From NCBI GenBank assembly GCA_965263355.1, contig CBDHHL010000049.1:128001-192000 (forward strand): a stretch of 64,000 nucleotides of DNA, read 5' to 3'. Of the stretch, positions 10,045-51,398 are shown one piece after another; the stretch's first letter is position 1, and each line of letters begins with the position of its first letter. Position numbers and translations under genes: made by a program. The stretch comes from Leptolyngbyaceae cyanobacterium. GTDB taxonomy: Bacteria; Cyanobacteriota; Cyanobacteriia; Phormidesmidales; Phormidesmidaceae. Under the pieces are notes generated by a model. The model worked only from the letters and a program-made list of their open reading frames with translations, did no database searches and was not told where the DNA came from.

Positions 10045-11184
10045 TCATGTGTAATGTGAAAACTCTACTTCCGCTAGGGCTTCATCGGGCAACACATAGG
10101 AATTTTTGAGAAATTCATTTTCTTCGATAAACAGTTCAGGGAAGCGGATATTAGGGAGCACTTGAACCGCAAAAATTTCTTGTACCGCGTCCTCAAATTT
10201 TAAAAATGCTACTATTTCTTGAGTTTCAAGGTTAATTACCCATACTCCGCAGGTTCGTTCGGTTAGCCGCTCGGTCAGAGGCAACCCGCTAAATATTGCT
10301 GATTCTCTCACTTGGGATAGACCGATAAAGGCCAAAGGACCGAAGAAATCCAGACCTCGGGTAAATCCTGGTAGTTGGATAAAGGCCAAAGGACCGAAGA
10401 AATCCAGACCTCGGGTAAATCCTGGTAGTTGGATTATGGGTTTAACTTTTCTGGTAGCGACATTCACCTTTGCTAGGGTACCTTCTCCGGACTCTAGTAC
10501 CCATAGCTGATCGCGATACCATCGTGGGGAATGGGGCATCGATAACCCTTTGATGAGAATTTCATTAGTGGTGACATCCATCAAGATGCCACCACTAGCT
10601 TTTTGCTCTCGCCAGCCGCCAACTGTATTTGTTGTACCCAAAGCGGTCACGTATTTGGGCATACCGTCTATCAGTTCCAGCCCGTTGAGATGACAGCGGT
10701 CTTCAGGAGCATAGGCGCTGACAAAGGGAGGCCGCCAGCGGGGTACAAAACTATGATCGAGATCCTGCGTACACAGGCATGAAAATCGCGTATTGACAAA
10801 CCACAGACCGTCATCTCCCCAGGCCATTTCATGGATATCAATATCTCCTGTGACATGAATGTTACGAGGTAAAAAGCAGGCATCGTGCTTACCAAAAGGC
10901 TCAAGCTTGGCAGCGGCGGCAGGTACATTACGCAATTCCCAGATATAGGCACTGGTGCCAATGGCCATGCGTCCGGTGTGATCGGTGGCCAATCCCATGG
11001 GTTTTTGAAAGATCCGAAAATGGGTATTCAGCGTATTCCCATCGGCACGAATCAAGACGACTTTGCCAGCCTGATATGTCGAAACAACAAGGGATATTCC
11101 CAGGTGATTAAGTAAGGCTGGAAAATTATTAGTGTGGATGCTTCGTAGAGAGGCTTGTCCACTAGGGGCATCAAAATTTGTCAA
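10045..11184 (-). CDS. TIGR03032 / DUF4915 family protein
   Basis: VSTYQAGK, HVTGDIDIHEM, FVNTRFSCL, PEDRCHLNGL, GLSMPHSPRW, LPGFTRGL, GLSQVRE motifs. Contains an 18-aa duplication. Confidence 0.88.
   Translation of the reverse strand: MTNFDAPSGQASLRSIHTNNFPALLNHLGISLVVSTYQAGKVVLIRADGNTLNTHFRIFQKPMGLATDHTGRMAIGTSAYIWELRNVPAAAAKLEPFGKHDACFLPRNIHVTGDIDIHEMAWGDDGLWFVNTRFSCLCTQDLDHSFVPRWRPPFVSAYAPEDRCHLNGLELIDGMPKYVTALGTTNTVGGWREQKASGGILMDVTTNEILIKGLSMPHSPRWYRDQLWVLESGEGTLAKVNVATRKVKPIIQLPGFTRGLDFFGPLAFIQLPGFTRGLDFFGPLAFIGLSQVRESAIFSGLPLTERLTERTCGVWVINLETQEIVAFLKFEDAVQEIFAVQVLPNIRFPELFIEENEFLKNSYVLPDEALAEVEFSHYT
10324..10434. repeat. Exact 54-bp in-frame tandem duplication
   Basis: gataaaggccaaaggaccgaagaaatccagacctcgggtaaatcctggtagttg x2, giving IQLPGFTRGLDFFGPLAF twice. 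Confidence 0.95.
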
Positions 11185-11253
11185 TGGATATCTTCAATAA
11201 TTGAATAGTATCAATTGAATCAGTTTAACCATTTTTACGAGAGAATTAGCTCT

Positions 11254-12165
11254 TTAATGTGAAATTTTGGTTCCCAGCTGATTGCCAGCCTGAACCTGAA
11301 CCTCTAGGTGCTGTTGTGAGTCTTGAATTAAGTCTTCATCAAAAATGATTGCACCAGGCTCAAAAAGTAGCACTATCGTAGAACCCCCATATTGGAAATA
11401 GCCCTTCTCTTGACCCCTATCAACTATGCCGGGAGTATAGGTTTGAATAATACTGGCCACTGTAGTTGCTCCTATTTCAACATACGTAATTCGCCCAAAG
11501 TTTTGGGAGTAGAATTCGGTTACGGCTCGTTTATTTTGATACAAAATTCCAGGGACTCTGGACAAGGCGATGGGGTTAACTGAGTGATATGTTCCTCTAA
11601 TATATCGTGCACGATTCGCCTTTCCTTGATCGGGAAAATGAAAGCGATGGTAATCGCGGGGAGCCAGACGAAGAATCAGTGCGCTTCCGTCTTGATATGT
11701 CTGGGCCGCACTTTCAGAAGCTAACAGGGCCTCCACGGTGATTGCGGACCCCTTAACAGGGATTTGGGTTTGTTTGGTTAGTTTAGGGTAAACTAAAACC
11801 TTTCCATCGCCAGGGGAACAAAATATGTCTGCGTTCTTGATAAAAGGACGAGCATGGGATTTTAAATGACGTGAGAAAAAGGCATTAAAGTTCTGATAAT
11901 ATTCTAGGGGAAATTCGACTTCCTCAAGATTGATAGAGTATTCTTTGACAAACTCGAAAATTTTGCGACGACTGCTGGGTAGATCTTGTAATTTACCAAA
12001 AAGCCAACAGAAAGCTTGATTATTAAGAAAACAATTAAAAACTGTGAAACCTAGAGTGTCTTCATATAACCAGCGCAATAGATCTTCCGCAAAGATTTTT
12101 TCAGCCGTAATCTTCCCAGTTAGGCGATCGCGATAGCAAATTTCAGTTTTTGTAGTTGTTTCCAT
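11254..12165 (-). CDS. psd: Phosphatidylserine decarboxylase proenzyme
   Basis: FNAFFSR, SPGDG, RLAPRDYHRFHFP, YHSVNP, GYFQYGGSTIVLLF autocleavage motif. ATG at 12165 lies 5 bp after the pssA stop. Confidence 0.95.
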   Translation of the reverse strand: METTTKTEICYRDRLTGKITAEKIFAEDLLRWLYEDTLGFTVFNCFLNNQAFCWLFGKLQDLPSSRRKIFEFVKEYSINLEEVEFPLEYYQNFNAFFSRHLKSHARPFIKNADIFCSPGDGKVLVYPKLTKQTQIPVKGSAITVEALLASESAAQTYQDGSALILRLAPRDYHRFHFPDQGKANRARYIRGTYHSVNPIALSRVPGILYQNKRAVTEFYSQNFGRITYVEIGATTVASIIQTYTPGIVDRGQEKGYFQYGGSTIVLLFEPGAIIFDEDLIQDSQQHLEVQVQAGNQLGTKISH

Positions 12166-12170
12166 TTCTG

Positions 12171-12809
12171 TCAACCTAAAGCGATTACCCAACTATAGAA
12201 TCCTGTCAGTACAATTGCGCCTGACGCAAACACGCCATACCAAACACCTCGAATTTTAATCATTTTGAAGTTGCTTACCATAGCGATCGCAAGCATTAAA
12301 TAGACGCCATCTAGAACCCATTTCATCATCGAGTCAGATAACATAAAACTGGCTGTAAACGTAAGCGGAATAAACAGAGCTGCATAGGTAACAGGTAAAC
12401 CAGTAAAGTATTCTTCGTTTGTCTCACTAATGAGTCCCACGCTGTTAAAGTACGACAACCGTAAAGCATTTACTGAGACATAGAACATCAGCATCGAAAC
12501 AGACAAAAAATCCTGTAATCCGAAACAATAAGCGAAAATAACCGGAGCAAACCCGAAAGAACAAACATCCACAATGCTGTCAAGTTGCTTGCCAATTTCA
12601 GATTGGAGGTGAGTCCGCTCCATTTTTCTAGCAACTACACCATCTAACATATCAGTCAATCCTGCATACATCATGCAGATAATAGCGATGTAGAAATGCT
12701 CTTGAATAGCCAAAATAGCTGATGCTGAGCTAAATATCAATCCAGCTAAAGTTAAAAGGTTTGGCAGATCAAGTTGTTGCAGGATTGGATTTTTCATAGT
12801 TTCTATCAC
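12171..12809 (-). CDS. pssA: CDP-alcohol phosphatidyltransferase, probable phosphatidylserine synthase (type II)
   Basis: LPNLLTL, DMLDGVVARKM...GKQLDSIVDVCSFGFAP signature, RLSYFN, FTGLP. Adjacent to psd. Confidence 0.88.
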   Translation of the reverse strand: MIETMKNPILQQLDLPNLLTLAGLIFSSASAILAIQEHFYIAIICMMYAGLTDMLDGVVARKMERTHLQSEIGKQLDSIVDVCSFGFAPVIFAYCFGLQDFLSVSMLMFYVSVNALRLSYFNSVGLISETNEEYFTGLPVTYAALFIPLTFTASFMLSDSMMKWVLDGVYLMLAIAMVSNFKMIKIRGVWYGVFASGAIVLTGFYSWVIALG

Positions 12810-12864
12810 GCTAAATTTTACTGAAATAATTTCTCGAAAACAAAATCTTGTCTTGAAATCACTA

Positions 12865-13752
12865 TCAAAAAATAGGAAACCCGTGATTTATAAGAATATA
12901 GAAAAATGGTGCGGCGAATAAAATACTGTCAAATCGATCCAAGATTCCACCATGCCCAGGTAAAACCTCACTAAAGTCTTTGATTTCCAGCTTTCTTTTG
13001 AGTGAAGAAAACAATAAATCCCCCAAATTCCCAACTATCCATATAACGAGCAATAGGATAGCGTCTTGCAATAGATTGGTATGCAGGACAGGGATAAATG
13101 TATGTAGTAAGATGATTGCTAGAATAAGCCCTATACCTGCAAAAAGATATCCCTCTAATGTCTTGCCAGGACTGATCTCTGGGAATAGGTATGTCTTGCC
13201 GAATTTTTTCCCAAAAATATACCCAATATTGTCGTTAAACTGTATTAAAAAAAGAATAGCTAGTAATGAGCCTGGACTAATTTTTATGAGATTCGCTAAA
13301 AATGTTGAGCTAAGAACTAAAACAAATAAAGAAAATGCTAACAGGTAGCGTGGTTTTTGAATCAGCTCTTGTTGACTGTTGAAGGTTATAAAGCCCATTA
13401 AAATAAAACCAGGTGTCGCAAGCTCAATAAATTGGCTTTGAGTATAAAGACCAGTTACGAATACGATTAAAGTAACAACCCCTAAAAATATCTTATTAAT
13501 TGGATACTGCTGGCTTAATTCATAAATGCCGAGCATCAAAACACATCCGACAAAAATATTCCAACCCAATACCCCTTGGTAGATAGCCAGGAGGATTAAA
13601 TGTAACAAAATTGAAAGGCTGAATGCTCTCATGATTACCTCTTTATTTCCTTGAATGATGGAAACGATCAGAAAAGATAAATAACAAATCAATCCAACGA
13701 GATAAAAATGCAAGAGGTTTTGAGTGTCCATAACAATCTTGATAGGTTTCAC
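12865..13752 (-). CDS. cdsA: Phosphatidate cytidylyltransferase
   Basis: Polytopic membrane protein with DNIGYIFGKKFG, ISPGKTLEG, GDLLFSSLKR...IKDFS..LPGHGGILDRFDS. Confidence 0.93.
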   Translation of the reverse strand: MKPIKIVMDTQNLLHFYLVGLICYLSFLIVSIIQGNKEVIMRAFSLSILLHLILLAIYQGVLGWNIFVGCVLMLGIYELSQQYPINKIFLGVVTLIVFVTGLYTQSQFIELATPGFILMGFITFNSQQELIQKPRYLLAFSLFVLVLSSTFLANLIKISPGSLLAILFLIQFNDNIGYIFGKKFGKTYLFPEISPGKTLEGYLFAGIGLILAIILLHTFIPVLHTNLLQDAILLLVIWIVGNLGDLLFSSLKRKLEIKDFSEVLPGHGGILDRFDSILFAAPFFYILINHGFPIF

Positions 13753-13791
13753 ACAAGGGTTTCTTGTGTTTAGGGTGCCGGGATATAGAGG

Positions 13792-14718
13792 CTATTGAGT
13801 CGTGCAGTGATAGCTGCCCGACCAGTCATAGAGAGAATTGAGTGACAACAACGAACGATCTCTCTGTTGAAATGTTTTTCCTTTTAGTAGCTCAGCCAAT
13901 ACTAAAATGGGATAGGTATGGCTAGATTTGAGAGCCATGATGCCGCTTGCGCCGGGTTGCTTGCTGTTAAGCCAATCGTTAAGAAAAATGTCGACATCGC
14001 CTATCATCTCACTGTAGCCAAAAATGGTGGTTGAATGGAACGCAATTACATGTTCTGCATCGCCGTCATCTAACCGTTGACACTTGCTTGTATCTTTGAA
14101 TAATGGGCCAGCTGGCTCTAGGGCAATAATGGTGTTGATTGCACTGCCTGTTTGTTCTGCATAGCTAGCACCTGCATTACCTAAGATATGGGCACCAAGA
14201 CTATGGCCAATCAAGATGATTTTTGATGAGTGAACTCCTAAATCAGCCAGAAAATTTCCGAGCAAAGCCCCCACTTTCAGAGTGTTTTTCTTCACAAATG
14301 TGTAATTGAGATGATTGGCATATTCTGTCCAATCAACAAAAATTACATTGGCATTAGGGATATGGTGTTTAATTGCAATCAATAGATCTTGAAAGTCGCC
14401 ATCTCTTGCTCCACCGCTGCACCAACCATGGGTTACAACATAGGTTGTCCGATTGACATCAAAACTGGTATTTTGCCACAGATAATATGTAACTCCGTTC
14501 TTTTTCTCTAAAAGAGCGCACTGACTTAAATCTCTTAAGCCAAAGAAGCTATCGTATTTTTGCCTGACTTTCTGGTCAACCGGGTGAATGATCTCATCTT
14601 TAATCCAATTTTGTATATTGCTAACGCTATAAAATAATTGTCGATATATTTTCTGAGTAAAAGAAGCTGAGCTATTTGGTGGTTGATTTGTATAATTCAA
14701 GTTCGAAATATTGATCAT
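13792..14718 (-). CDS. Lipase/phospholipase A1-like alpha/beta hydrolase (pancreatic-lipase family)
   Basis: VTHGW, NVIFVDW, LIGHSLGAHI, ALEPAGPLF, RLDDGDA, SH. Confidence 0.85.
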   Translation of the reverse strand: MINISNLNYTNQPPNSSASFTQKIYRQLFYSVSNIQNWIKDEIIHPVDQKVRQKYDSFFGLRDLSQCALLEKKNGVTYYLWQNTSFDVNRTTYVVTHGWCSGGARDGDFQDLLIAIKHHIPNANVIFVDWTEYANHLNYTFVKKNTLKVGALLGNFLADLGVHSSKIILIGHSLGAHILGNAGASYAEQTGSAINTIIALEPAGPLFKDTSKCQRLDDGDAEHVIAFHSTTIFGYSEMIGDVDIFLNDWLNSKQPGASGIMALKSSHTYPILVLAELLKGKTFQQRDRSLLSLNSLYDWSGSYHCTTQ

Positions 14719-14804
14719 TAGTTGATTGTGTAAGTCATATAGAACCTATACACCTCGATATTGCCATTATCGTGAATCTTGAGGGCAGACAAAAGACTGA
14801 AAAG

Positions 14805-14833
14805 ATCAGTTTTTGTCAGGTAAATGTTCAGGT
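14805..14833 (-). promoter_or_regulatory. ACCTGAC-type direct-repeat array upstream of the lipase-cdsA-pssA-psd operon
   Basis: Minus strand reads ACCTGAAcatttACCTGACaaaAACTGAT, with spacings of 12 and 10 bp. Confidence 0.6.
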
Positions 14834-14972
14834 ATTGCCTAAAAAAAGATTTATAATGATGCCGACCTCGGTAATTCGATTGCATGTAATAACCTAACTC
14901 GTTGCAAAATCAGGCTAACTTCAACCCCTGATCCACATGTAACTTTTAGAACCTTCACAGTGAGTGCAGTTT

Positions 14973-16151
14973 ATGACTCGTGAATTAATACCGTTTTATC
15001 CACCCCAATCCAATCGTTGGATAACCTGGTTAATCCAGCACTTTGCCAAGCCAATCACTTACGCTCTTTATAAGTTTGATATTCGGGTGTCTCCAGCAGA
15101 TATCGTCAAGTTAAAAGCACTAGAGGAGAATCGGTTAGTCTACATCTGCAACCATCCATCTATGGAAGATGGACCAGCCATGTTCTGTTTATCCGCTCAG
15201 CTTGGCCAACAATTTAACTACATTGTGACATGGAACCTTTTCAGAGGGTTACAAGGTAAATTGCTTCAGGCATTAGGCTGTTATTCTATCCGTCGAGGTC
15301 TGGGCGATCGCGCAAGTATTATTCATACCTTAAATTTATTGAAATCACCTCGTTGTCGTCTGGCGATTTTTCCAGAGGGTGGCTGCACCTATCAAAACGA
15401 TAAAATAATTCCTTTCCTCTCAGGCGCAATCCAAATGCCATTAAAGGCGATGGATCAGTTAACCAAACGGGCGGATACTCAAGAAAATCATCTCAATCTG
15501 TATCTAGTGCCCGTCAGCTTAAGGTATAGCTATGTTCAGCCGCTAGAATCTATCATTGAGCGGAGCCTACAGGCTTTAGAAGCTGAATTGAATCTGCAAT
15601 TCTCTACCCATGCGTTTTATGACCGCTTGATTGCGATTGAAACACGCATACTTGAGCAGCTAGAAAGCGAATATAGCTTTGCAAGCGACAACCGACTTAC
15701 CCTGAACCAACGTATTGCTCGCCTGCGCCAACATGCTATGGCACAGTGCAAACAAAGACTTAGGCTTGACCTTCCCGATAATAGCTCCCTGCGTGAACGG
15801 GTTTACAAAATTCAAGCCATCTTGCAAGCAAAGTTACCGCAGACTCAAGATGATAAAGCTCTCTACTGGCAAACTGTTCGTTTGCTAAACTTTGATTCTA
15901 TCTATGATGATTATATTGACAAACACTCTTCCCTTGAGAGGTTTCTCGATACCCTGATGCGGCTGGAAAGTGAAACTTACAAAGCTGAGTATCTGAAGCC
16001 TAAAGCCTTTCGTCGAGCCAAAATCAGAATAGGAAACCCCATTAACCTTAAAGCTTATGTCGATGCCTATCGCGCTGATAAAACTGGCACAGTAGAGAAA
16101 CTCACTCAACAACTTCAAACAACGGTTCAGAATAATCTGTTGAACCTATGA
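14973..16151 (+). CDS. Glycerolipid (lysophospholipid) acyltransferase, PlsC superfamily
   Basis: ICNHPSMED (HxxxxD), GCYSIRRG, AIFPEGG, LVPVSLRY. ATG at 14973 (track GTG at 14964). Confidence 0.88.
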   Translation: MTRELIPFYPPQSNRWITWLIQHFAKPITYALYKFDIRVSPADIVKLKALEENRLVYICNHPSMEDGPAMFCLSAQLGQQFNYIVTWNLFRGLQGKLLQALGCYSIRRGLGDRASIIHTLNLLKSPRCRLAIFPEGGCTYQNDKIIPFLSGAIQMPLKAMDQLTKRADTQENHLNLYLVPVSLRYSYVQPLESIIERSLQALEAELNLQFSTHAFYDRLIAIETRILEQLESEYSFASDNRLTLNQRIARLRQHAMAQCKQRLRLDLPDNSSLRERVYKIQAILQAKLPQTQDDKALYWQTVRLLNFDSIYDDYIDKHSSLERFLDTLMRLESETYKAEYLKPKAFRRAKIRIGNPINLKAYVDAYRADKTGTVEKLTQQLQTTVQNNLLNL

Positions 16152-16247
16152 TGGAAGAATATTAAGAGCGAAAGTTGTTGCATCCACTACAAATTTTAGA
16201 GGCTCAAGGCTGCGATAGATTCTGGGTTCACTGTCTGAGCCTTGTTT

Positions 16248-16561: not shown

Positions 16562-18325
16562 ATGACTAAAACCGTCGTTCCCGAAAATCAAAAATTTAAG
16601 CAGAGAATTTTAGGGGTAGCCTTTGTCAGCGTCTTCATTGATTATATGGGTATCGGCCTTGTTGTCCCACTCTTACCCTTCTATGCTAAAGCCTTTGGGG
16701 CGTCTGCCTTTGAAGTGGGGGCACTATTTGGTATTTACTTTTTATTTGGAATTCTGGCCCCTGTAATCTGGGGGAGTTTAAGCGATCGCATCGGTCGTCG
16801 TCCAGCACTCCTTTTCAACATTGCGGGAACAGCCCTGTCATATCTATGGCTAGGTTTAGCGAACTCACTATGGATGCTTTTTATGGCCCGGATTTTAGCT
16901 GGAGCTTCTGGGGCCAGTATCGTCATTGCCCAGTCCTACGTTTCTGACCTAACCACCACTGAGAACCGCAGAAAGGCCCTAAGCCTTATCGAAGCAGCTT
17001 CGGTCATTGGTCTGGTGATTGGTCCCGCAATCGGAGGATTCTTGCTAGGAAACGAGCCGAACCAACCCAATTTCCGCTTGCCTGGTTTGGTTGCTGCAGT
17101 AGCCTCGGGGCTAATCTTTGGCCTTGCGTTGATAGCGTTACCCCCTGGAGGACCCCGTATACATACTTCATCGCCAGCAATGCCAACATCCCCCCGACAG
17201 GTCTTGGCTGACGTGAACCAGGTGCTTCAACGACCACTCATGGGGGCACTTTTGATCGTGGTCTTTCTAGCAGTGCTAGCTTTCACAGGCATTCAGGCGA
17301 TTTTTGCCCTGTGGTGTGAACAACGATTTGGTTGGGGGCCACAACAGTTTTGTTATTTCGTCATTTATTACTGTATTTGTGTTGTTACGCTACAAGTGGC
17401 TTTGACAAGGCCTCTTTCAAGGCGATTTGGTGATATTGGATTACTTTTATTCAGTCTCATAGTGGGGAGCTGCGGATTATTTATGGTGCCCCTCTCGCAG
17501 ACACTACCACAATTTCTAATACTAGTATTTGCAACAGCAACGGAGGCTCTATTTCATACGGGACGTGCCACTTTAGTAACACAGCTTGCAGGCACCAATC
17601 AACAAGGTAAAACCCTGGGTTTAATGCAATCGGTGATGGGATTATCTCGATTTTTGGGAGCCCTCCTGGCCGGGTATCTATTTGGTGCATTCGGTGCAAA
17701 CTGGCCCTATTGGGTGGGTGCCATTTTAATGATAGCTACCACTGTTATTTGTTGGCAGAAACTTACACAATCGAGCCTAGCTGCGGTAATGCGACAGCGG
17801 CGACGGCAAAAACTCATGCACCTATTTAACCTACTAGATCGAGATCAGAATGGCACAATTGAACGACAGGATTTACAACGAGTCGGTCAGGATTTAGCCA
17901 AACTTAGAAACTGGCTACCGGATACAGCTAAATATCAAAGGTTGCAAACTGCTTTTATGGAATTGAGTGACCGCTTGCAAACATTGGCGGATCGCGACAG
18001 TAACCAGCAGATTGATCAAATCGAATGGCTACATTGCTTGGAACAACCACAACAAGTAGATAATGAGTTTGCCCACCATTTCCTACAAATCATTGACGCG
18101 AATCAAGATAATCAGGTAACGCTGGAAGAATTGAGCACCTTCTACCAAGCATTGGGCATCGATACACCAGCACTCAAAGAAATTTTTGATACCCTTGATC
18201 TCAATCAGGATGGACATCTTTCGCAGACCGAATTCGAGGCTATATTTGCCCAGTTTTTATATAGTGATGACGTCCAGGTACCGGGGAACTGGATGTTTGG
18301 GGCGAGCTTGCCTCTGAAGTTGTAG
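16562..18325 (+). CDS. MFS transporter (TetA/DHA1-like) fused to a C-terminal EF-hand domain
   Basis: GSLSDRIGRRP motif A and about 12 TM segments, then DRDQNGTIERQD, DRDSNQQIDQIE, DANQDNQVTLEE, DLNQDGHLSQTE loops. Confidence 0.9.
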   Translation: MTKTVVPENQKFKQRILGVAFVSVFIDYMGIGLVVPLLPFYAKAFGASAFEVGALFGIYFLFGILAPVIWGSLSDRIGRRPALLFNIAGTALSYLWLGLANSLWMLFMARILAGASGASIVIAQSYVSDLTTTENRRKALSLIEAASVIGLVIGPAIGGFLLGNEPNQPNFRLPGLVAAVASGLIFGLALIALPPGGPRIHTSSPAMPTSPRQVLADVNQVLQRPLMGALLIVVFLAVLAFTGIQAIFALWCEQRFGWGPQQFCYFVIYYCICVVTLQVALTRPLSRRFGDIGLLLFSLIVGSCGLFMVPLSQTLPQFLILVFATATEALFHTGRATLVTQLAGTNQQGKTLGLMQSVMGLSRFLGALLAGYLFGAFGANWPYWVGAILMIATTVICWQKLTQSSLAAVMRQRRRQKLMHLFNLLDRDQNGTIERQDLQRVGQDLAKLRNWLPDTAKYQRLQTAFMELSDRLQTLADRDSNQQIDQIEWLHCLEQPQQVDNEFAHHFLQIIDANQDNQVTLEELSTFYQALGIDTPALKEIFDTLDLNQDGHLSQTEFEAIFAQFLYSDDVQVPGNWMFGASLPLKL

Positions 18326-18337
18326 CATTTCAGGACC

Positions 18338-19798
18338 ATGACGTTACCAAAACGACAAAGTACTAGCTCTCAGTCCAACCCGTTTCCTACCTCGGAAGGA
18401 AATAAAAATCTTCGTTCAACTCGAGTTTCTGTCAAAAAAACATCCAAAAAAGCACCTAACCTTAGGTTTCTCTGGCGTGGAATAATTCTAGCAGTATCAA
18501 GTTTTGGAATTTTTTTCTTTAGCCCAACTATCAAGGAGATTTTATCGCAAAATAAAGAGATTTTATCGCAAAATAGAAAGAGCACAGTCCAAGATACCGT
18601 ATCCTCTCTCAGTATTCTACCTGTCGAAGTAACCACTACCAACGCTGTTGACTCTTATCAAGTAGAGCACACCTATGCAGGAACAATTATTCCCCGTAAT
18701 AGCAGTGTGCTAAGTTTTGAACGTGCGGGTAAATTAGCCAAAATCGTGGTTGATGAAGGCGATTATGTTGAAATGGGGACTCCCATTGCGTTCCTTGACA
18801 CCCGTACCTTAAAAAACCAGCAATGGGAATTATCAGCGCGGCGCAAACAAATGGTTGCGCAACTGCGGGAAATGGAGGCAGGTGCTAGGGCCGAAACAAT
18901 TGCTGCAGCTGAGGCATCCGTAAGACAATTAAACGAGCAGCTTCAATTAGCTCGTCAAAAAAGCGAGCGTCGCGAGGCTTTATACAATCAAGGAGCAATT
19001 TCTCAAGAGCAAAGAGATGAAGCCTTTAATGAAACGAGCACATTGCAAGCTCGCCTAGATAATGCACAAAGTCAATTAGATGAACTACTGGCAGGAACCC
19101 GTTCAGAACAAATCGAAGCACAGCAAGCCCTGATCGAACAACAAGATGCCAAAATTGCCAATCTAGATATTGAACAAGAGAAAAGTATCCTCAAGGCTCC
19201 TTTTTCGGGCACGATATCTGACCGTTTAGCTGACGTCGGCACAGTTTTAGACGCGGGCCAGGCAATGTTTAAGCTAGTAGAAGATAATCAATTGGAAGCC
19301 CATGTTGGGATTCCCAGCAAGACAGCGTCAGCGACTCAAATTGGTGATATTTTCACCTTACAGGTTGAACAGAACACCTATCAAGCACGAGTCACTTCAA
19401 TTCTTCCAGAACTCGATCCGCAAACTTTAACAGTCACTATCGTCCTCAAACTAGACCAGACAGACTCAACCGCGATTTCGCTGGGGCAAGTGGTCAAATT
19501 ACAACTCACTGAAACAATTAATCAGCCTGGTTACTGGTTACCGATTACGGCCTTAGTAGAAACCGAGCAAGGGTTATGGTCTTGTTATGTATTAGGGAAA
19601 CAGCAAGACGTGACTACTGACAATCAACCAGTCTTTCAGGTTAACGAAAATATTGTGGAAATCTTACATACACAAAGCGATCGCGTCTTAGTTCGAGGAA
19701 CAATCCAGCCCAATCAAAAAGTAATTGTCGATGGCATTCACCGTATTGTCCCAGGCCAACAAGTTCGCATTAGTAATGGCAACCTAACCCCTGAGTAA
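18338..19798 (+). CDS. RND efflux periplasmic adaptor
   Basis: VDEGDYVEMGTPIAFLD, coiled coil, LKAPFSGTI. Paralog of 1342-2622. Confidence 0.92.
   Translation: MTLPKRQSTSSQSNPFPTSEGNKNLRSTRVSVKKTSKKAPNLRFLWRGIILAVSSFGIFFFSPTIKEILSQNKEILSQNRKSTVQDTVSSLSILPVEVTTTNAVDSYQVEHTYAGTIIPRNSSVLSFERAGKLAKIVVDEGDYVEMGTPIAFLDTRTLKNQQWELSARRKQMVAQLREMEAGARAETIAAAEASVRQLNEQLQLARQKSERREALYNQGAISQEQRDEAFNETSTLQARLDNAQSQLDELLAGTRSEQIEAQQALIEQQDAKIANLDIEQEKSILKAPFSGTISDRLADVGTVLDAGQAMFKLVEDNQLEAHVGIPSKTASATQIGDIFTLQVEQNTYQARVTSILPELDPQTLTVTIVLKLDQTDSTAISLGQVVKLQLTETINQPGYWLPITALVETEQGLWSCYVLGKQQDVTTDNQPVFQVNENIVEILHTQSDRVLVRGTIQPNQKVIVDGIHRIVPGQQVRISNGNLTPE
18536..18575. repeat. 21-bp-period tandem duplication (KEILSQN x2)
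   Basis: gagattttatcgcaaaata at 18536 and 18557. Confidence 0.85.
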
Positions 19799-19803
19799 TT
19801 CCC

Positions 19804-23056: not shown

Positions 23057-23145
23057 TTTTCACCACTGAAAATTTGCGTGATTATGGTGGAAACACAAAA
23101 TACAGCGACACTAACACAAGTTCTCCTAGAAAGGACAGAGTCAAC

Positions 23146-44159: not shown

Positions 44160-47100
44160 ATGAACAAGATTTCTGCTCAATCATCTGAACAACTTCAATC
44201 TGCTCAGAATGTCCTGTTGGCGTTGCGTAATGCTAAAAACAAACTTAAAGCTATTAAACAAGCTAAGACAGAACCGATTGCCATCATTGGCTTAGGGTGT
44301 CGTTTCCCAAAATCCAATAGTCCAGCTGATTTCTGGCGGTTACTGGAACAGGGCATGGATGCTGTGACTGAGGTGCCTGCAGAGCGTTGGGACATTGACC
44401 AATATTATGACCCCGACCCAGAGGTTCTGGGCAAAATGCATACCCGCCATGCCAGCTTCCTGTCCGACGTAGATCAATTTGATGCTGACTTTTTCAAAAT
44501 CTCTCCTCGCGAAGCCAAGAGTCTCGATCCTCAACATCGATTGTTGTTGGAAGTGTGTTGGGAAAGTCTCGAAGATGCAGGGGTGTCGCCACTGGCGTTG
44601 AAAGGTACTCAAACCAGTGTCTTTATTGGCATGATGACCCATGACTATGGACACCTTGCGGCCCAGACTGCAGATATCCATACAGGTTTTGGCAATGGGG
44701 CTCCCCTGGCCGCTGGTCGGATTGCCTATACCTTAGGTCTTAATGGACCTACATTGACGGTCGAAACAGCCTGTTCTTCTTCTCTAGTTGCTTGTCATTT
44801 GGCGTGTCAGAGTTTGCGTAACCAAGAGAGTAATCTGGCCTTGGTCGGTGGTATCAACCTGATGTTGACACCCGAGATGAGTATCCTTGAGGCTCAAGCT
44901 CAGATGAATTCACCCGATGGTCGGTGCAAAACCTTTGATGAGGGTGCTGATGGCTATGGGCGCGGTGAGGGCTGTGGCATTGTGGTGCTCAAGCGATTGA
45001 GCGATGCCCAAGCCGATGGTGACCGAATTTTAGGGTTGATTCGGGGGTCTGCCATTAATCATGATGGCCCCAGTAGTAGCTTGACAGTGCCTAATGGATT
45101 AGCGCAAAAAACATTGATCGAGCAAGCCTTAGCCAATGCCAATGTGCAGGCAGCTCAGGTGGACTATGTGGAATGTCATGGCACTGGAACAGCCTTGGGA
45201 GATCCCATTGAGGTCGATGCGTTAGTCAAGGCTTACGGTCAGCATCGCGCTTTGAATCATCCGATCATGCTTGGTTCTGTTAAGACGAACATTGGTCATA
45301 CCGAAGGGGCTGCCGGTATTGCGGGATTAATCAAGGTAATTTTGTCTTTACAACACGAGAAGATTCCACCGCATCTGCATCTGAAGCAGCCCAATCGACG
45401 CATTGCCTGGGATGACATACCTGTGGTTGTGCCGACGGCAATCCAACCCTGGCAACGGGGAGAGAAGACTAGACTGGCTGGGGTGAGTTCCTTTGGCCTC
45501 AGTGGCACCAATGCCCATGTGATTGTCGAAGAAGCGCCTTTATCCCGACCGATGCCAGCCCCCCTGGAGCGTCCCTGGCATGTGCTGACCCTATCCGCCA
45601 AAACAGAGGATGCGTTGCAAGCACTGGTTGAGCAGTATGAGCGATACTTCAACGCTCACCCAGAGTTAACACTTGCAGACATTGGCTATACGGTTAATAC
45701 CGGTCGAGCACACTTTCAAAATCGTTTAGCGATTGCGGGAACTTCTTTAGCTGAGGTGTCTGAGAAACTGAGACAACTTAGAGAAGCAAAACAGACACAG
45801 GGAACCAACCTGGGGCAATTTGATCACCGGCAGGCTGCACAGATAGCTGTTCTGTTTACGGGACAAGGTTCGCAGTATGTAGGCATGGCCCGAGAACTTT
45901 ATAAGACGCAACCGACCTTCAGACAGACGCTTGAGCAGTGCGATGAGATTCTTAATGCTTATCTCGATCTGCCCTTGCTCGATATTCTCTATCCAGATGA
46001 GAGAACAGAACAAGCCGATGCTCTATTGCATCAGACGGCCTATACCCAACCGGCTCTATTTGCCATTGAGTATGCACTCTATCAACTCTGGCAATCTTGG
46101 GGCATTGCACCTTCTGTGGTGATGGGGCATAGCATTGGTGAGATAGTAGCGGCTTGTGTTGCAGGTGTCTTCTCTCTCGAAGATGGCTTGAAGCTGAGTG
46201 CGATGCGGGGCCAGCTGATGCAACAAATACCCGCTGGTGGCGCAATGCTATCGGTGATGGCCTCCGTTGAGCAGGTTAGAACTATCATTGCTGATTCAGA
46301 AAGAAACAACGTTGAGATCGCGGCTATCAATGGCCCTGAGAGTACGGTTATTTCAGGTGAAGCATCTGCCGTTCAATCGATTGCTCAACACCTCGAAGCT
46401 CAGGGAATTAAAACCAAACAACTTCAAGTCTCCCATGCTTTCCATTCACCGTTGATGGCACCGATGCTGGCTGAGTTTGAGCAGGTGGCTCAGCAGATCA
46501 GCTATTCACTGCCTCAGCTCAAACTGATTTCCAATGTCACCGGACAGGTGGTGACTGAGCAAGTGGCGACGCCTGAGTATTGGTGTGAGCATATTCTGGC
46601 ACCAGTGAACTTTTCTGCTGGCATGGAGTGTCTGCAGCATGAAGAGATTAATATCTTGCTTGAATGTGGGCCTCAACCGATTCTGCTAGGAATGGGACGA
46701 CAGTGTCTACCAGCGGATGAGGAGAACGCTTGGTTACCGTCTCTTAGACCGGATCAGAGCAACTGGCAGCAGATGCTCTCCAGCTTAGGTCAGCTCTATA
46801 TCCGTGGGGTGAACATTGATTGGGAGGGCTTTGAGACGGACTATCCCCAACGCCGTAAAGTCTCCCTACCCACCTATCCCTTCCAGCGTCAACGTTACTG
46901 GGTGGAAACTCAACCCAATCCAACTCGAATGATGGCCGCCAGAGATCGCATCCATCCACTGCTGGGTCAACGATTACAATTAGCAGGCCGCTGCCAAGAC
47001 ATTTTCTTTGAAACCAGCCTGAGTGCGGCGAGTCCGGTCTACTTGTCAGACCATCGTGTCTTGGACCAGGTGGTTCTCCCAGGAGCCGCTTATGTAGAGA

Positions 47101-50100
47101 TGGTTCTGGCGGCTGGAGCCCAAATTTTTCAATCCCACTGCCTGGTATTAGAACAGGTCTTTATGGCTCACCCCCTGCTCCTATCAGCCACTCAATCTAC
47201 CACAGTACAGGTTGTCCTGAGTCCAACCGAAAAAGGCGTTTACACATTTGAGGTGGCCAGCTTGAAAACGGCTTCTGACGCTGACAGTTGGCAAGTCCAT
47301 GTCTCGGGGAAGCTACGCGCAGGAGGCACCCGACCGGACAAAGTGATGTTAGAGCAATGGCATGACCGAGGGGCACCGCTGCCATTGGAGCCATTTTACC
47401 GACAGTCTCAAGCGCAGGGGCTGGCGTTTGGCGAGTGCTTCCAATCTTTAACACAAGCCTGGACTGAGTCTGGCGAAGGGTATGCCCAGGTGAAATTGCC
47501 CCTAGCTATTGGGGACGCTGATAACTATCATCTGCATCCCATTCTGCTGGATGGCGGCTTTCAATTAACCGGGGCCATGCTGGCAGTCGGTAACCAAACC
47601 CAGTCAAACTCGCTGTATTTGCCCGTGGCCATTGAGCGTCTGGAGGTCTATGGCCAGGCGGGACCGCAACTATGGGTGCAAGCAAACGTACGTGATGCGG
47701 ATACTGGGAACAGTTTGAGCAGTGACTTTCGGTTGGTAGACCCAACGGGGAACGTTGTTGCTCAAGTGGAGGGTTTCACCCTTCGCCAGGCTACTCGTCA
47801 AGGACTGCAGCGAGCTTTGGAACCAGATTTGAGTGATTGGTTCTACACGCTAGACTGGCGGCTGCACCCCCTGGAGAGATCGCACCCACTACCATCTGGA
47901 GGTCGCTGGCTGGTATTCACCTCAGGCGGAGACTTGGGTGAGCAATTACTTCAACAGCTTCAGCAGCAAGGTCATACCTGCATCCAAGTTGCTGTGGGTT
48001 CCAGCTATCAACGCTTGAGCGACGCATACTACCAGGTGAATCCTCTAGAACCCGATGATTTTCGGCAACTGCTGCAAGCGTGTTGTCACGAGCAGCCGCA
48101 AGGGATTATCCACCTGTGGTCCCTGGAAAGTGCCGCAGTGGCAGAGTTGGATACGGATGGCTTGTACCAGTCACAGGTACTCAGCTGCGGCAGTGTGCTG
48201 CATCTGTTGCAGGGATTGTCGTCGGCTCAGGCCGTGCCCCTGTACTTGGTGACCCAAGGGGCACAATCAATCCGCTCTCATCCAACAGAGGTACAGGTGC
48301 AGCAAGCTCCCTTGTGGGGCTTGGGGCGAGTCATTGCGATGGAATATCCGGCGATTAAGTGTCAGCGCTTAGACTTAGACCCCAATGCTTCTGTAGAGAC
48401 GAATGTGGGTGCGATCGCAGCTGAACTGCATAGCAGCCATGACGAAGATCAAGTCGCCTATCGCCACAATCAGCGCTTTGTGGCCCGCCTGCTGCGACAG
48501 CGAGAAGCCGCTCAAAGAGCGGGGCAACGTGCCATCCCTCAAGGGCAACCCTATCAGTTAAAGCTGTCAGCCTATGGCTCCCCCGACCACCTCAGTCTGC
48601 AACCCATGACCCGTCGTGCTCCTGCCGCTGGGGAAGTGGAAGTGCAGATGCAAGCGGTCGGTTTGAACTTTCGCGATGTCCTGAACGCCCTCGGCGTGCT
48701 CAAGGATTACTATGCCGAGCACTTTGGGATTACCGACCCGCAGCAGTTAACCTTTGGATTTGAAGGAGTGGGGCGCATTGTGGCGCTGGGAGCAGAGGTT
48801 ACACATCTGCAGATCGGCGATGAGGTGATAGTGACGATGATACCGGATGGCTTCAGCAGCCATGTCACCACAAAAGCCGCCTGGGTGTTCAAAAAGCCAC
48901 CACAGCTTAGTGCCACTGCCGCTGCCACGCTTCCCTTGGTATTTTTAACTGCTCAGTACGGGTTGAGTCAGTTGGCCCAGCTGCAGCCAGGGGAGCGGGT
49001 GCTGATCCATGCAGCGGCAGGTGGCGTGGGCCAGGCCGCCGTACAAATTGCCCAACGGCTGGGGGCTGAGATTTACGCCACAGCCAGTCCAGGAAAATGG
49101 GCATTTCTTCGCTCCCAGGGCATTCAACACATCTTCAACTCACGCAGCCTGACGTTTGCCGACCAGATAAAGCAAGCGACTGGCGGCGTGGGAGTGGATG
49201 TCGTCCTCAACAGTTTGAATGGCGAACATATTCCCAAGAGCCTGGATGTTTTAGCTCCAGGCGGGCGATTTATTGAAATCGGCAAGGCTGGCATCTGGAG
49301 TACCGCACAAGTGCGCCAGCAGCGGCCTGATGTGGCCTATTTCCCCTTTGATCTAGGTGAAGTGGGTCAAGCCAATCCGCCGTTGATGCGAGCAATATTT
49401 GAGCAATTTCAGCAGGCGGTTACAGAAGGTGACCTAAAATCACTACGCCAGCAGGTATATCCGATTACCCAAGTGGTCGAGGCGTTCCGGTTGATGCAAC
49501 GGGGTCAGCACCTAGGTAAGGTGGTGGTGACGCTACCAGATGTTGAGGCCGCTGAAACCGGTGTCCAAAGTGAAGGCAGTTACCTGATCACGGGTGGATT
49601 GGGAGCCCTGGGGCTACAGTTGGCACAAGCATTAGCAGACCAGGGAGCCCGTTCCTTGGTGCTGATGGGACGTCGTTCGCCCTCCGCTCAAGCCCAAACT
49701 GTGATTACGGCACTGCAGACCCAGGGGATTAAGGTGAGTGTGGAGCTTGCGGATGTAGCCGATTTTCCAGCCGTCGCTCAGATGATGGCGAAAATTGAGG
49801 CCGAACTCCCTCCGTTACGGGGCGTGGTCCATGCCGCTGGAGTCCTGGAGGATGGTCTCCTACAGCAGATGAGCTGGCCCAGTTTTACCAAGGTGATGGC
49901 CCCCAAGGTGCTAGGTGCTTGGAATTTACATCAGCTGACACAGCAGCAGCCATTAGATTTCTTTGTCTGCTTCTCTTCAATCGCAGCCCTGATGGGAAAT
50001 GCCACTCAGGGAAACTATGCGGCCGCGAATACGTTTCTCGATGCCCTGGCTCATCATCGTCGAGTCAGGGGATTGCCCGGCTTAAGTATCAATTGGGGGC

Positions 50101-51398
50101 CTTGGGCAGCGGACGGCATGGCAGCCTGCTTAGGCACACAGTATCAAAGTCATCTGCAAGCCTTGGGCATTGCATCCATGACTCCCCAACAGGGCCTTAA
50201 ATCATTCACTCAGTTGTTGTCAGAACCCGACACGCAAGTTGGTGTATTCTCGATTAATTGGTCTAATTTTTTGAAACACCTACCCGGTAGAGTAAATCCT
50301 CCGTTTTTAGAAGAATTTGCTTCTAATGTAGTCGTTGAGACTAAAAATGATCGCCTCATTGAGCAATTGAGAACAGCTCCAGCAGATGAAAAAGAGAATA
50401 TCCTAACCCCTTATCTGCAAAATAAGATTGCGCGGGTTTTAGGGATGACAGCGTCCCTAATAGATGTTGAAGAACCACTTAATCAGATGGGACTTGATTC
50501 TCTGATGACGATCGAGGTACGTGCCCAAATTCAAAGAGAGTTGACCGTGGATTTGCCCATCGAAAAGCTCATAGAGGGGCCTAGTATTACTCAAGTCGCT
50601 ATATTACTGCTTGAGCAATTGGCGTTGACCGATGTTAGTGCATCAACCCAGCCAGATTTAACGGTTCACCCTGAAACTCACGAGGCTGCAGCGACTGAAC
50701 CTACCGAAGACCTTTTGACTGGAGAGCCTAAAGCGGTTCTACCAGGCCCTAGAAATTTAATTGCCCGTGTTATCCTCTGGATTTTTGGCTTTCTGACCCG
50801 ATTCATCTGGTCCATTGAAGTCGTTGGCCAGGAACACCTTTCACCCGAACCGCCTTTTATTCTTTGTGCTAACCATGAATCGCATTTTGATTCGCTATGG
50901 ATCACGTCGTACTTATCACCACAGCTGCGATATCAATTCTGTACTTTGGCGAAGCAAGAGCATTTTGAAAAACGAATACCGAGACTGTTGATGAGCCTTC
51001 TTGGTAGCATACCTGTGGACCGTCAAGGAGATTCGCTGCCAGCGCTCCGAACAGCAGCCCAAGGATTACTGGCGAAACGACCTTTATTTATTCACCCAGA
51101 AGGGACGCGTACGCGAACCGGTGAACTTTTACCCTTTCGAAGGGGAGCTGCCAAATTAGCCATTGCCACTAGTTCACCGATAATTCCCGTAAGGATCATT
51201 GGGGCGTACGCAATCTTTCCGCCTGATCAGAAATGGCCTAGCTTGTTTGACTGGAAAAACTGGCGACGGCGGCAGCTGAAGATTGTTTTTGGGGCACCAA
51301 TTGAACCATCAAAGCAAGAAAGGGGGTTGCAGGCAGAAATTCTTTTGACTGAACAACTCCGCCAGGCCATCATTGCACTTCACTGTTCTGAGTGTTAA
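44160..51398 (+). CDS. Terminal type I PKS: KS-AT-DH-ER-KR-ACP plus PlsC-like acyltransferase domain
   Basis: [36 protein letters not shown] (ER), [13 protein letters not shown], then [41 protein letters not shown]. No thioesterase GxSxG. Confidence 0.95.

Follow-up and report, generated by a model that had tools for sequence, protein, structure and literature searches.

The window analysed here, a stretch of 64,000 nt from a Leptolyngbyaceae cyanobacterium, raises the question of whether an unusual polyketide chain, branched and unsaturated, might be built directly into a phospholipid, and into one with a serine or ethanolamine head group, which cyanobacteria normally lack. We read the locus as a hybrid polyketide-phospholipid cluster whose most likely product would be a polyketide-acylated phosphatidylserine (PS) or phosphatidylethanolamine (PE); we put the probability of this reading at about 0.6, with the acceptor, the acylation position, the serine head group, the role of the lipase, the export and the chain structure all predicted from the genes themselves. 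An earlier, sequence-only reading had listed these genes and their positions, and profile matches and motifs bear out that list gene for gene.

Synthase genes and the terminal acyltransferase domain

The genes on the plus strand run in the order PlsC-like acyltransferase, MFS transporter with EF-hands, RND pair, a FAAL-ACP protein and the PKS genes, which encode four cis-AT modules in all. The loading protein (23074..25266), a fatty acyl-AMP ligase with a carrier domain according to profile matches, has fatty-acid--AMP ligase and FadD32 as its best specific NCBIfam names, below cut-off, and would activate a fatty acid and pass it to the modules encoded downstream on the same strand. These are found in PKS1 (25318..38574), with two modules that each read KS-AT-DH-cMT-KR-ACP by domain scan and active-site motifs, and, by domain scan, in PKS2 (38571..44147; KS-AT-DH-KR-ACP) and PKS3 (44160..51398; KS-AT-DH-ER-KR-ACP-AGPAT). 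All four KS domains have the Cys-His-His residues and all four AT domains have GHSxG and HAFH. Malonyl extenders and two C-methylations would yield a chain of the form R-CH=C(Me)-CH=C(Me)-CH=CH-CH2-CH2-CO-S-ACP with an uncertain third double bond; the DH domain of module 3 (PKS2) is the weaker one and lacks a clear second catalytic motif, so that a conjugated triene remains a prediction. Directly downstream of PKS3 a profile match identifies an AraC-family regulator (51496..52590, plus strand), a possible regulator of the cluster.

The domain scan detected no thioesterase in any part of the PKS, and PKS3 ends in a PlsC/AGPAT domain (about aa 2160-2412, positions 50637-51395; PF01553 match at aa 2219-2346, E 3.5e-24) with intact HX4D (NHESHFD) and EGTR (HPEGTRT) motifs. 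Such an ending suggests that the chain on the last ACP would be transferred to a glycerol-phosphate lipid, the likeliest acceptor being the sn-2 hydroxyl of lysophosphatidic acid. By its sequence the domain belongs to a carrier-protein-fused clade, its closest relatives among the matches listed all being fused in this way. An architecture scan of 19 of the best 150 listed representatives found AMP-binding-(ACP)-AGPAT in 10, C-A-PCP-AGPAT in four, short ACP-AGPAT pieces in three, and one case each of KS-AT remnant-ACP-AGPAT and of AGPAT alone. Against a link with the lipid operon, neither PssA nor Psd was found near more distant members of the clade at any of 80 metagenome loci. Other PKS-AGPAT proteins (P0122-P0126) were also encountered, one of them from Candidatus Entotheonella factor.

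The same strand carries a stand-alone PlsC-like acyltransferase of 395 aa (14964..16151; PF01553), which the sequence-only reading had counted as a second acyltransferase of the pathway. Its HX4D motif is intact, and HX4D and FPEGG are invariant across its family, whose members, at 42-56% identity, are common throughout the cyanobacteria; only three closer relatives were observed (91, 92 and 65%). At none of 80 loci with homologues was a lipid-operon or PKS gene found nearby; this is a generic cyanobacterial gene that is not conserved in the clusters, and its membership of the pathway is uncertain. It is followed, on profile matches, by an MFS transporter with a C-terminal EF-hand calcium-binding domain (16562..18325) and by an RND adaptor, or membrane-fusion protein (18338..19798), and permease (19804..22920), all on the plus strand, which would export the lipid or a lyso-lipid.

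The phospholipid operon

On the minus strand an operon begins with a lipase gene and continues with genes for CdsA, PssA, Psd and a TIGR03032 protein; the reading frames of psd and pssA share 22 nt, and 39-69 nt separate the other genes. The 245 bp that separate the operon from the plus-strand genes (14719..14963) are bridged by Logan contigs from two runs, a single contig of run X1 that covers 9924-17665 and one of run X3 (same study, another sample) that covers the lipase/acyltransferase junction at 13773-15373, and the joining of the two halves is thus not a mis-assembly of this record alone.

The phosphatidate cytidylyltransferase CdsA (12865..13752; PF01148, E 3e-46) is of a divergent, second-copy type and would turn the unusual phosphatidic acid into CDP-diacylglycerol. 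The PssA-like CDP-alcohol phosphatidyltransferase, a candidate phosphatidylserine synthase (12171..12809; PF01066), has a complete D-x2-DG-x2-AR...G-x3-D-x3-D motif, with archaetidylserine synthase and pssA as its best NCBIfam names; it would add serine, and the phosphatidylserine decarboxylase Psd (11254..12192; PF02666, E 5e-54), with the self-cleavage motif GST intact at aa 270, would decarboxylate the product, giving polyketide-bearing PS and PE. The NCBIfam equivalog scores of all three enzymes lie below the curated cut-offs, and we therefore infer the serine or ethanolamine head group from enzyme family and the pssA-psd overlap. Genomes with a cassette of this kind have one high-scoring CdsA (about 212-219 bits) and one cassette copy (152-157 bits), whereas G001 and G004, without a cassette, have one copy each. 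An extra, lower-scoring CdsA beside the standard one speaks for entry of the odd chain ahead of the CDP-diacylglycerol step.

The lipase (13792..14718) is a single-domain member of PF00151, the pancreatic/lipoprotein lipase and phospholipase A1 (PLA1) family, with an intact GHSLG motif and PDB matches that include lipoprotein lipase, PLRP2 and the 300-aa hornet venom phospholipase A1. Only seven bacterial relatives were found, those with names being cyanobacterial; the enzyme probably cleaves off one acyl chain in the manner of a PLA1. Its absence from G859, and the failure to detect it close to the G918, G1099 and G903 cassettes, count against a fixed place in the proposed pathway. The last gene of the operon encodes a TIGR03032/DUF4915 protein (10045..11184; 433 bits, cut-off 251.5) and contains a perfect 54-nt tandem duplication that the Logan contigs skip. 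It too had been listed with the operon, but membership of a conserved pathway is not supported: copies with 63-68% identity lie away from the lipid genes in G859, G544 and G004, and copies occur in genomes both with and without the cassette. It is probably a bystander, a widespread cyanobacterial gene that is not conserved in these clusters.

Cassettes in related genomes

Genes of PE synthesis are unusual in this part of the bacterial tree. Matches to PF02666 were found in five of 401 sampled genomes of the class Cyanobacteriia and in none of five named relatives; four of the matches are 23-29% identical to the window Psd, and for the fifth genome the window Psd had no tblastn match in the 4-kb contig. 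Psd is thus rare in the class. In the order to which G859 belongs, 6 of 341 genomes have a PssA of the window type; for that of G544 the figure is 1 of 17. Neither this PssA nor a Psd of the window type turned up elsewhere in the Cyanobacteriia searched, a sporadic distribution resembling that of biosynthetic gene clusters (6/341, 1/17, 1/52 and 0/172 genomes). The window PssA is 54-72% identical to the cassette copies, and the window Psd 57-68% identical to those of the cassettes of G859, G918, G1099, G899, G903 and G1006. Six cassette Psd sequences form one group in the tree (support 92/92), within a wider starred clade (95/97) that adds G1006 and three Psd from phylum-sample genomes, two of which (G075 and G060) are without PsaA/PsaB.

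Two of the cassettes (G899 and G1006) lie at contig ends and were left out of the count of informative contexts. The other four differ in their chain-building genes. G859 has, on one strand, a CMAS-like methyltransferase, KS-AT remnant-ACP-AGPAT, CdsA, an alpha/beta-hydrolase-like ORF, PssA, Psd and MFS, with identities to the window of 63% for the AGPAT domain, 72% for PssA and 68% for Psd. In G918, FAAL and ACP-AGPAT are followed by a methyltransferase, CdsA, a hydrolase-like ORF of the G859 type, PssA, Psd and MFS, and in G1099 the order is FAAL, ACP-luciferase-like-MT-reductase-ACP-AGPAT, HAD, ADH, LarA-like, lipid kinase, CdsA, PssA and Psd, with MFS further on. G903 has a desaturase, SDR, CdsA and PssA, with Psd and a FAD-linked oxidase on the opposite strand. 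In all four a second, divergent CdsA is adjacent and chain-building enzymes are present, and a carrier-protein-fused AGPAT occurs in three (G859, G918 and G1099).

The closest relative with a genome, G544, has PKS-AGPAT (79% identity) on one contig, followed directly by MFS-EF (80%), then by the MFP (74%) and RND (83%) genes in the order of the window, FAAL (76%) and, downstream of it, PKS. A second contig carries PssA (64-65%), CdsA (71%) and, adjoining CdsA, the lipase (70%). The cassette CdsA of G544 has an internal TAA and transposases on its flanks, and the cluster, judged from these features, may be decaying. No Psd was detected in G544, so that PE is not an obligatory end product; Psd is part of the cassettes of G859, G918, G1099 and G903 and is not universal.

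The link between synthase and lipid genes goes beyond adjacency, AGPAT-fused synthases being recurrently co-located with cdsA-pssA-psd. The original idea, that the PKS chain feeds a dedicated PS/PE line, gains support from the rare PssA and Psd, the second CdsA, the fused AGPAT or other chain-building enzyme, and G544.

Known systems and competing explanations

In aryl-polyene and flexirubin clusters, type II PKS/FAS-like enzymes make a polyene on a carrier protein; cluster acyltransferases probably anchor it to a lipid, and exporters of RND-like or LolA-like type would move it. Such clusters are not known to contain cdsA-pssA-psd, and their likeness to the window is one of general scheme. The sole PDB match of the fused domain, PlsC of T. 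maritima (an LPAAT; 5KYM, E 2.4e-11), shares HX4D and EGTR with it but is a free-standing housekeeping enzyme, whereas the domain in the window is fused behind an ACP. The myxobacterial PUFA synthase Pfa3 also carries an AGPAT domain (PMC6731297): there too the megasynthase, of PKS type, has a 1-acylglycerol-3-phosphate acyltransferase domain at its end in place of a thioesterase, and the product is thought to enter phospholipid directly. Pfa is, however, an iterative synthase, in contrast to the FAAL-primed window synthase, whose four cis-AT modules are colinear and include C-methyltransferases, and a dedicated cdsA-pssA-psd set is not described for pfa clusters in the available parts of that source; the likeness is one of architecture. 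The ElbD ether-lipid cluster (elb) of Myxococcus xanthus, which has ethanolamine lipids as end products (PMC9131029), likewise combines an acyl-activating domain, an ACP and an AGPAT-like domain. According to a 2026 preprint, homologues of elbD in sponge symbionts adjoin genes for G3P acyltransferases, DAG kinases and CDP-alcohol phosphatidyltransferases, and the preprint, in the portion available, places such homologues in Poribacteria, Acidobacteriota and Latescibacterota and not in cyanobacteria (10.64898/2026.06.23.733905). The window differs in having no reductase (FAR) domain and no ElbB/ElbE-like neighbours, and its loading step is separated from AGPAT by four PKS modules. An ElbD-like appearance is seen instead in the G1099 cassette, with its FAAL, reductase-ACP-AGPAT, HAD and lipid kinase. 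AGPAT-terminated synthases are already known, and the claim that no characterised cluster has this architecture stands in the searches made, the principle not being new.

Escherichia coli Aas, an acyl-ACP synthetase and lyso-PE acyltransferase with a repair function, and its MFS flippase LplT suggest a different use of the same parts. They and the window alike bring together an acyl-activating enzyme, a carrier-bound acyl group, a transferase of the PlsC family that works on phospholipid (in the window, by prediction) and an MFS transporter. In a remodelling scheme of this Lands-cycle kind, the operon would make ordinary PS and PE, the lipase would produce lyso-PE or lyso-PS, and the PKS-fused AGPAT would re-acylate it with the polyketide. 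The AGPAT region scores nearly as well against PRK08633, acyl-[ACP]--phospholipid O-acyltransferase, as against TIGR00530, AGP_acyltrn (E 6e-19 and 3e-22, both below cut-off), a hydrolase recurs (in the window and G544 as the PF00151 lipase, in G859 and G918 as the alpha/beta-hydrolase-like ORF that separates cdsA from pssA), and so does the MFS neighbour, much as LplT accompanies Aas. Yet the domain order is the reverse of that in Aas, which has no PKS modules, the Aas-type matches of the window fall below cut-off, and the models that its MFS matches best are those of Tet-type efflux and not that of a lysophospholipid transporter. A private, divergent CdsA, kept in every informative cassette despite a standard one, is hard to explain with ordinary phosphatidic acid alone, and we regard remodelling as rather unlikely.

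Less probable still is a scheme in which the phospholipid serves as a carrier or intermediate and the lipase releases the exported product, which could be the polyketide as a free acid, a lyso-lipid or a derivative with another head group. The two efflux systems conserved with the PKS in G544, the recurrent MFS, the PLA1 enzymes in the lipase family, and the AraC regulator and sporadic distribution would all suit a secreted product, but a full CdsA-PssA-Psd line would be costly merely for chain release. The lipase, moreover, has no evident signal peptide when judged by eye and is missing from G859. That an acquired PE operon simply came to lie beside a PKS cluster, whose AGPAT would load ordinary precursors of the PG or glycolipid pathway, is very improbable and already disfavoured: the 33 kb and opposite strands between operon and AGPAT domain count against a pathway link, as do the multi-copy IS66 at the border of the operon, the group II intron genes nearby and the generic nature of TIGR03032 and the neighbouring acyltransferase, but the pairing recurs within single operons in G859, G918 and G1099 and again in G544, with PssA and Psd of a type confined to such genomes in the Cyanobacteriia searched. 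If polyketide acylation ahead of the head-group steps is the correct reading, these cyanobacteria would make PS or PE with a polyketide chain in a lineage that is otherwise without PE.

Gene order, borders and the predicted chain

An ORF listing combined with Pfam and NCBIfam scans located all of the genes that the sequence-only reading had named in the cluster. A minus-strand operon encodes, in its order of transcription, a PF00151 lipase (13792-14718), CdsA (12865-13752), a PssA-like CDP-alcohol phosphatidyltransferase (12171-12809), Psd (11254-12192, its gene sharing 22 nt with pssA) and a TIGR03032/DUF4915 protein (10045-11184). Beyond a divergent gap of 245 bp, the plus strand encodes a 395-aa PlsC-like acyltransferase, an MFS transporter with C-terminal EF-hands, an RND adaptor and permease, a FAAL-ACP protein and the three polyketide synthases PKS1 to PKS3, after which an AraC regulator is the next gene. 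Logan contigs of two sequencing runs, one of which may be the window's own source, span the point where the lipid operon meets the plus-strand genes. Within the TIGR03032 gene there is a perfect tandem duplication of 54 nt (18 aa) at 10323-10378, and the Logan contigs of both runs, X1 and X3, skip exactly 54 nt at this repeat; either the duplication is an artefact of the window assembly, or the k-mer assembler has collapsed it.

On its left the cluster is bordered by a multi-copy IS66 element. Contig depth over the transposase gene (8730-9950) is ~3-4 times as high as over the cluster, and both runs show loose ends at 9950/9953. Farther left are two minus-strand ORFs for group II intron reverse transcriptase/maturases (3936-5687 and 6366-7196), the second of which (276 aa) matches no more than positions 1-212 of a 353-position model, and another minus-strand RND adaptor/permease pair (3-2634), 46-49% identical to that of the cluster. 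Megablast returned no plasmid match to 10045-25266.

The PKS proteins, scanned as 400-aa in-frame pieces, form a modular cis-AT type I assembly line with intact motifs and colinear modules. PKS1 has the order KS-AT-DH-cMT-KR-ACP twice over, PKS2 has KS-AT-DH-KR-ACP and PKS3 has KS-AT-DH-ER-KR-ACP-PF01553; no thioesterase domain was seen in these scans. All four KS domains have the Cys-His-His set, the four ACPs have the GxDSL serine motif, and all four AT domains have GHSxG and HAFH, the latter being presumably of the malonyl-specific type. The catalytic His was found in each of the four DH domains; in the module-3 DH no clear second motif was seen. The chain predicted from this order of domains would be R-CH=C(Me)-CH=C(Me)-CH=CH-CH2-CH2-CO-, its third double bond being uncertain.

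The acyltransferase domain fused to PKS3

The terminal domain of PKS3 (aa 2219-2346) belongs to the PlsC-like acyltransferase (AGPAT) superfamily, matching PF01553 with 85.5 bits against a gathering cut-off of 23. The HX4D and EGTR-type catalytic motifs of the superfamily, present as NHESHFD and HPEGTRT, are invariant across eight aligned AGPAT domains fused to carriers. Against models of narrower families the domain scores below cut-off: 78.7 bits against TIGR00530 (cut-off 102.95), an LPAAT activity with 1-acyl-glycerol-3-phosphate as acceptor being a prediction, and 67 bits against PRK08633, an acyl-[ACP]--phospholipid O-acyltransferase model with a cut-off of 1221, which is a match at the level of the domain only. 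Among solved structures, the PlsC of T. maritima was the sole match.

An exhaustive HMMER search of 1.84 billion representatives with the 253-aa domain gave 119 matches at E<=1e-30. Pfam scans of 19 of 150 listed matches revealed ten AMP-binding-(ACP)-AGPAT proteins (~860-950 aa, or fragments thereof), four C-A-PCP-AGPAT NRPS modules, three short ACP-AGPAT pieces, one lone AGPAT domain and a single KS-AT remnant-ACP-AGPAT protein (P0192), whose domain is 63% identical to that of the window. These architectures place the PKS3 domain in a clade specialised in taking acyl, or aminoacyl, groups from a fused carrier protein. The AGPAT domains of the four NRPS modules (P0245, P0265, P0271 and P0273) are 42-46% identical to that of the window, and lyso-lipids may be the acceptors onto which these proteins release aminoacyl or peptidyl groups. 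Fusion to a PKS is rare: a word-indexed search (1326-4221 aa) found PF01553 in only six PKS proteins (P0121-P0126), one of them from the named source Candidatus Entotheonella factor.

Head-group genes and their pairing with chain-building enzymes

The operon matches the three families of the CDP-DAG route to PE (PF01148, PF01066 and PF02666), and the GST motif of Psd, the complete CDP-alcohol motif of PssA and the GHSLG motif of the lipase are all intact. The scores for the NCBIfam equivalogs are all below their cut-offs (Psd 343 against 371, pssA 72 against 107, CdsA 85 against 385). To our knowledge, PG is the only phospholipid in the textbook account of the Cyanobacteriia. Psd was absent from the five named cyanobacterial genomes tested and was found in 34 of 401 genomes sampled across the phylum. 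Near the nine of these phylum matches that are most like the Psd of the window (50-57%), CdsA was present in all nine and PssA in four, and no lipase, FAAL, PKS or fused acyltransferase was found in any; neither PsaA nor PsaB was detected in the five of these genomes tested, so these members of the phylum are not photosynthetic. In a class-level sample of 401 genomes, five had a Psd-family match, four of them only 23-29% identical to the Psd of the window and the fifth on a 4-kb contig in which tblastn with that Psd gave no match; none of the five had PssA or CdsA beside it. This distribution indicates that the lipid operon is unusual for Cyanobacteriia, and its rarity agrees with the PG-only statement. 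The bacterial relatives of the lipase are only cyanobacterial MAG proteins or unnamed, and a lipase probe gave weak matches, without any real relative, in 2 of 172 genomes of the order that includes the comparison genomes G001 (Leptolyngbya sp. PCC 7375) and G002. The better of the two matches, in genome G739, was rejected: it is a frame of 749 aa, and the only cluster-type genes in its surroundings are an RND pair 15 kb away.

The sequence-only reading had tied the PKS to a dedicated PS/PE line, and that proposal is supported in part, strongly so in its core. Decisive here was the recurrence of an AGPAT-fused synthase together with cdsA, pssA and psd in genomes G859, G918 and G1099 and, on separate contigs and with no Psd found, in G544. 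According to NCBI, four Symploca MAGs have members of the P0192 cluster. Among 52 genomes of the family to which Moorena producens 3L (G005) belongs, the AGPAT probe matched one, G859. The genes of G859 lie on one strand, starting 436 nt from a contig end, in the order CMAS-like methyltransferase, KS-AT remnant-ACP-AGPAT, CdsA (49% identical to that of the window), a 266-aa ORF, PssA (72%), Psd (68%), MFS and then housekeeping genes. The window's PssA as a probe found 6 of 341 sampled genomes in the order of G859. In G918, a FAAL and an ACP-AGPAT (in two frames) precede a methyltransferase, CdsA, a homologue of the 266-aa ORF, PssA, Psd and MFS. The ORF between cdsA and pssA in these two genomes (L140:6217-7017 and L256:265-1137; mutually 54% identical) has no Pfam match and is grouped with alpha/beta hydrolases by a protein atlas with a score of 0.95, a lead only; in these cassettes it would take the place that the lipase has in the window.

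The group of genes in G1099 runs from a FAAL through a 1586-aa ACP-luciferase-like-methyltransferase-NAD_binding_4 reductase-ACP-AGPAT protein, HAD, Zn-ADH, LarA-like and DAG-kinase-like proteins to CdsA, PssA, Psd, HTH, octopine-DH-like and MFS proteins. In G903, a fatty-acid desaturase and an SDR precede CdsA and PssA, and Psd and an FAD-linked oxidase, which we take to be of the alkyl-DHAP synthase family, are on the other strand. With an ElbD-like FAAL, reductase-ACP-AGPAT, HAD and lipid kinase beside cdsA-pssA-psd in the one (L259/L260, G1099 contig 34), and the desaturase, SDR and oxidase in the other (L261/L262, G903 contig 28), the two cassettes resemble pathways for ether lipids coupled with the head-group genes. 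Genomes G899 and G1006 have only PssA-Psd(-MFS) at contig ends.

A class-wide sample gave AGPAT matches at E<=1e-25 in 4 of 401 genomes. Three are stand-alone or FAAL-type (36-50% identical), in genomes with no Psd, PssA or lipase; the fourth, G544, placed in the class of G001, is the closest genome found, with an AGPAT 80% identical. One of its contigs has the end of a PKS-AGPAT followed by MFS-EF (80%), MFP (74%), RND (83%), FAAL-ACP (76%) and a PKS, and a second has a trans-ER/AT-like gene, PssA (64-65%), MFS, a transposase, lipase (70%), CdsA (71%, with an internal TAA) and IS66. Psd was not found in G544 by family or protein search, and a window-type PssA occurs in 1 of 17 genomes of its order. 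A third short contig (L247, G544:C277:1-8429) has a cassette-type CdsA (46%), a 436-aa PlsC-like protein and a 1279-aa KS-AT-ACP protein side by side. The fusion of MFS with an EF-hand region (aa ~404-565; window 16562-18325) is kept in G544 with 80% identity (L152:1380-3140), an unusual transporter architecture that hints at a calcium control of export.

No fused AGPAT was found in the 172 genomes of the order of G001 and G002, where three matches at E<=1e-15 were all stand-alone frames of 216-243 aa with 27-33% identity. A metagenome search with the AGPAT alignment was uninformative for the cluster: at 80 loci among the matches listed, the best of which were 48-49% identical and on short contigs, no Psd or PssA was nearby, and CdsA-like and AMP-binding neighbours occurred at 2 and 13 loci, respectively. 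In its scattered occurrence the cluster resembles those of secondary metabolism. Common to the cassettes are PssA, usually Psd, MFS and a divergent CdsA that is extra to the standard copy, a single CdsA being present in G001 and G004. A hydrolase is also kept, either the PF00151 lipase (window, G544) or the hydrolase-like ORF (G859, G918), as is an enzyme that loads the chain, in most cases together with an AGPAT fused to a carrier. In a tree of 39 Psd sequences from within the phylum, with one row dropped for low coverage, those of the window, G859, G1099, G903, G918 and G899 form one group (92/92), nested in a clade (95/97) with G1006 and three Psd of the phylum sample.

Two further proteins that had been counted as parts of the pathway do not travel with it. 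The stand-alone acyltransferase (PF01553, 50 bits; HPSMED and FPEGG present) belongs to a widespread family (42-56% identity), almost all cyanobacterial where named among the best 120 listed homologues. At 80 loci of such homologues there were no lipid-operon, FAAL or PKS genes, so that it is a poor marker of the cluster; one RND-like match of 24% (L010) and one DUF4915 copy (L073) were the neighbours found. The G544 copy is 40% identical and located elsewhere, and the best match in G859 is 24%; three nearer metagenomic relatives (91, 92 and 65%) make a cluster-specific paralogue possible. The TIGR03032 homologues of G859, G544 and G004 are on other contigs or in other places, and the cassette regions retrieved showed no copy. 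At L073 in Lusitaniella coriacea (G004, contig 1, near 3.67 Mb), the DUF4915 copy (39-44%) lies ~2 kb upstream of the acyltransferase homologue and points away from it, an arrangement like that of the window minus the four lipid genes, seen at this one of the 80 loci.

A proposed polyketide-phospholipid pathway and its alternatives

We give a probability of about 0.6 to the mechanism that explains the genes most economically, in which FAAL-ACP would prime the PKS, four modules would extend and methylate the chain, the fused PlsC domain would off-load it onto a glycerol-phosphate lipid, and the private CdsA, PssA and Psd would then yield CDP-DAG, PS and PE bearing the polyketide chain, with the lipase trimming and the transporters moving the product. 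The main rival is an Aas-like remodelling, by which the fused AGPAT would re-acylate a lyso-lipid with the polyketide chain. The recurrent hydrolase of the cassettes and the domain-level similarity of the AGPAT to acyl-ACP:phospholipid acyltransferase models are consistent with such a late step, but that the cassettes keep a CdsA of their own would speak more for a chain that enters at the level of phosphatidic acid. As G544 shows, Psd can be missing, and PS may therefore be an end product in some variants.

AGPAT-terminated systems are known from myxobacteria, in Pfa3 of the PUFA synthases (PMC6731297) and ElbD of Myxococcus ether-lipid synthesis (PMC9131029), and a 2026 preprint describes sponge-symbiont elbD-like clusters flanked by genes for a G3P acyltransferase, a DAG kinase and a CDP-alcohol phosphatidyltransferase. 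ElbD is not mentioned in PMC7487321. Pfa-type synthases are iterative, with tandem ACPs and a FabA-like DH, whereas the window has single ACPs, PKS-type DH domains and cMT. The acyl-activating, ACP and AGPAT-like parts of the ElbD type are all in the window, but split over FAAL-ACP and PKS3 with four modules between them, and the FAR-like reductase (NAD_binding_4) and the ElbB (HAD) and ElbE neighbours (PMC9131029) are absent from the scanned genes of the window and present in the G1099 cassette. The window thus belongs to neither family, although the principle is the same. New in it are the colinear C-methylating modular PKS, the complete cdsA-pssA-psd line and a host group lacking PE. The statement that no characterised cluster has this architecture held in searches of the literature, in which nothing relevant came up by title or abstract.

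More tentatively, and with odds somewhat on the unfavourable side, a portable head-group cassette (divergent cdsA, pssA, usually psd, a hydrolase and MFS) might have been coupled in scattered Cyanobacteriia to a FAAL, an ElbD-like reductase synthase, a one-module PKS or a four-module PKS, giving a family of specialised serine/ethanolamine phospholipids in a group whose only phospholipid is taken to be PG. The window would be its most elaborate member, making a dimethyl-polyene acyl PE/PS, trimmed in the manner of PLA1 and secreted by RND/MFS, as a new class of natural product, the polyketide-phospholipids.

The comparative set of the window, G544, G859, G918, G1099 and G903 makes the idea directly testable, and the idea offers natural-product chemists a concrete mass-spectrometric target and lipid biochemists natural variants of cdsA, pssA and psd that are presumably tolerant of odd acyl chains. 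If the proposed mechanism is true, off-loading onto a glycerophospholipid via a fused PlsC domain would be a new way of chain release from a modular PKS, and some cyanobacteria would make lipids of the PS/PE type, against the textbook lipid inventory of the group.
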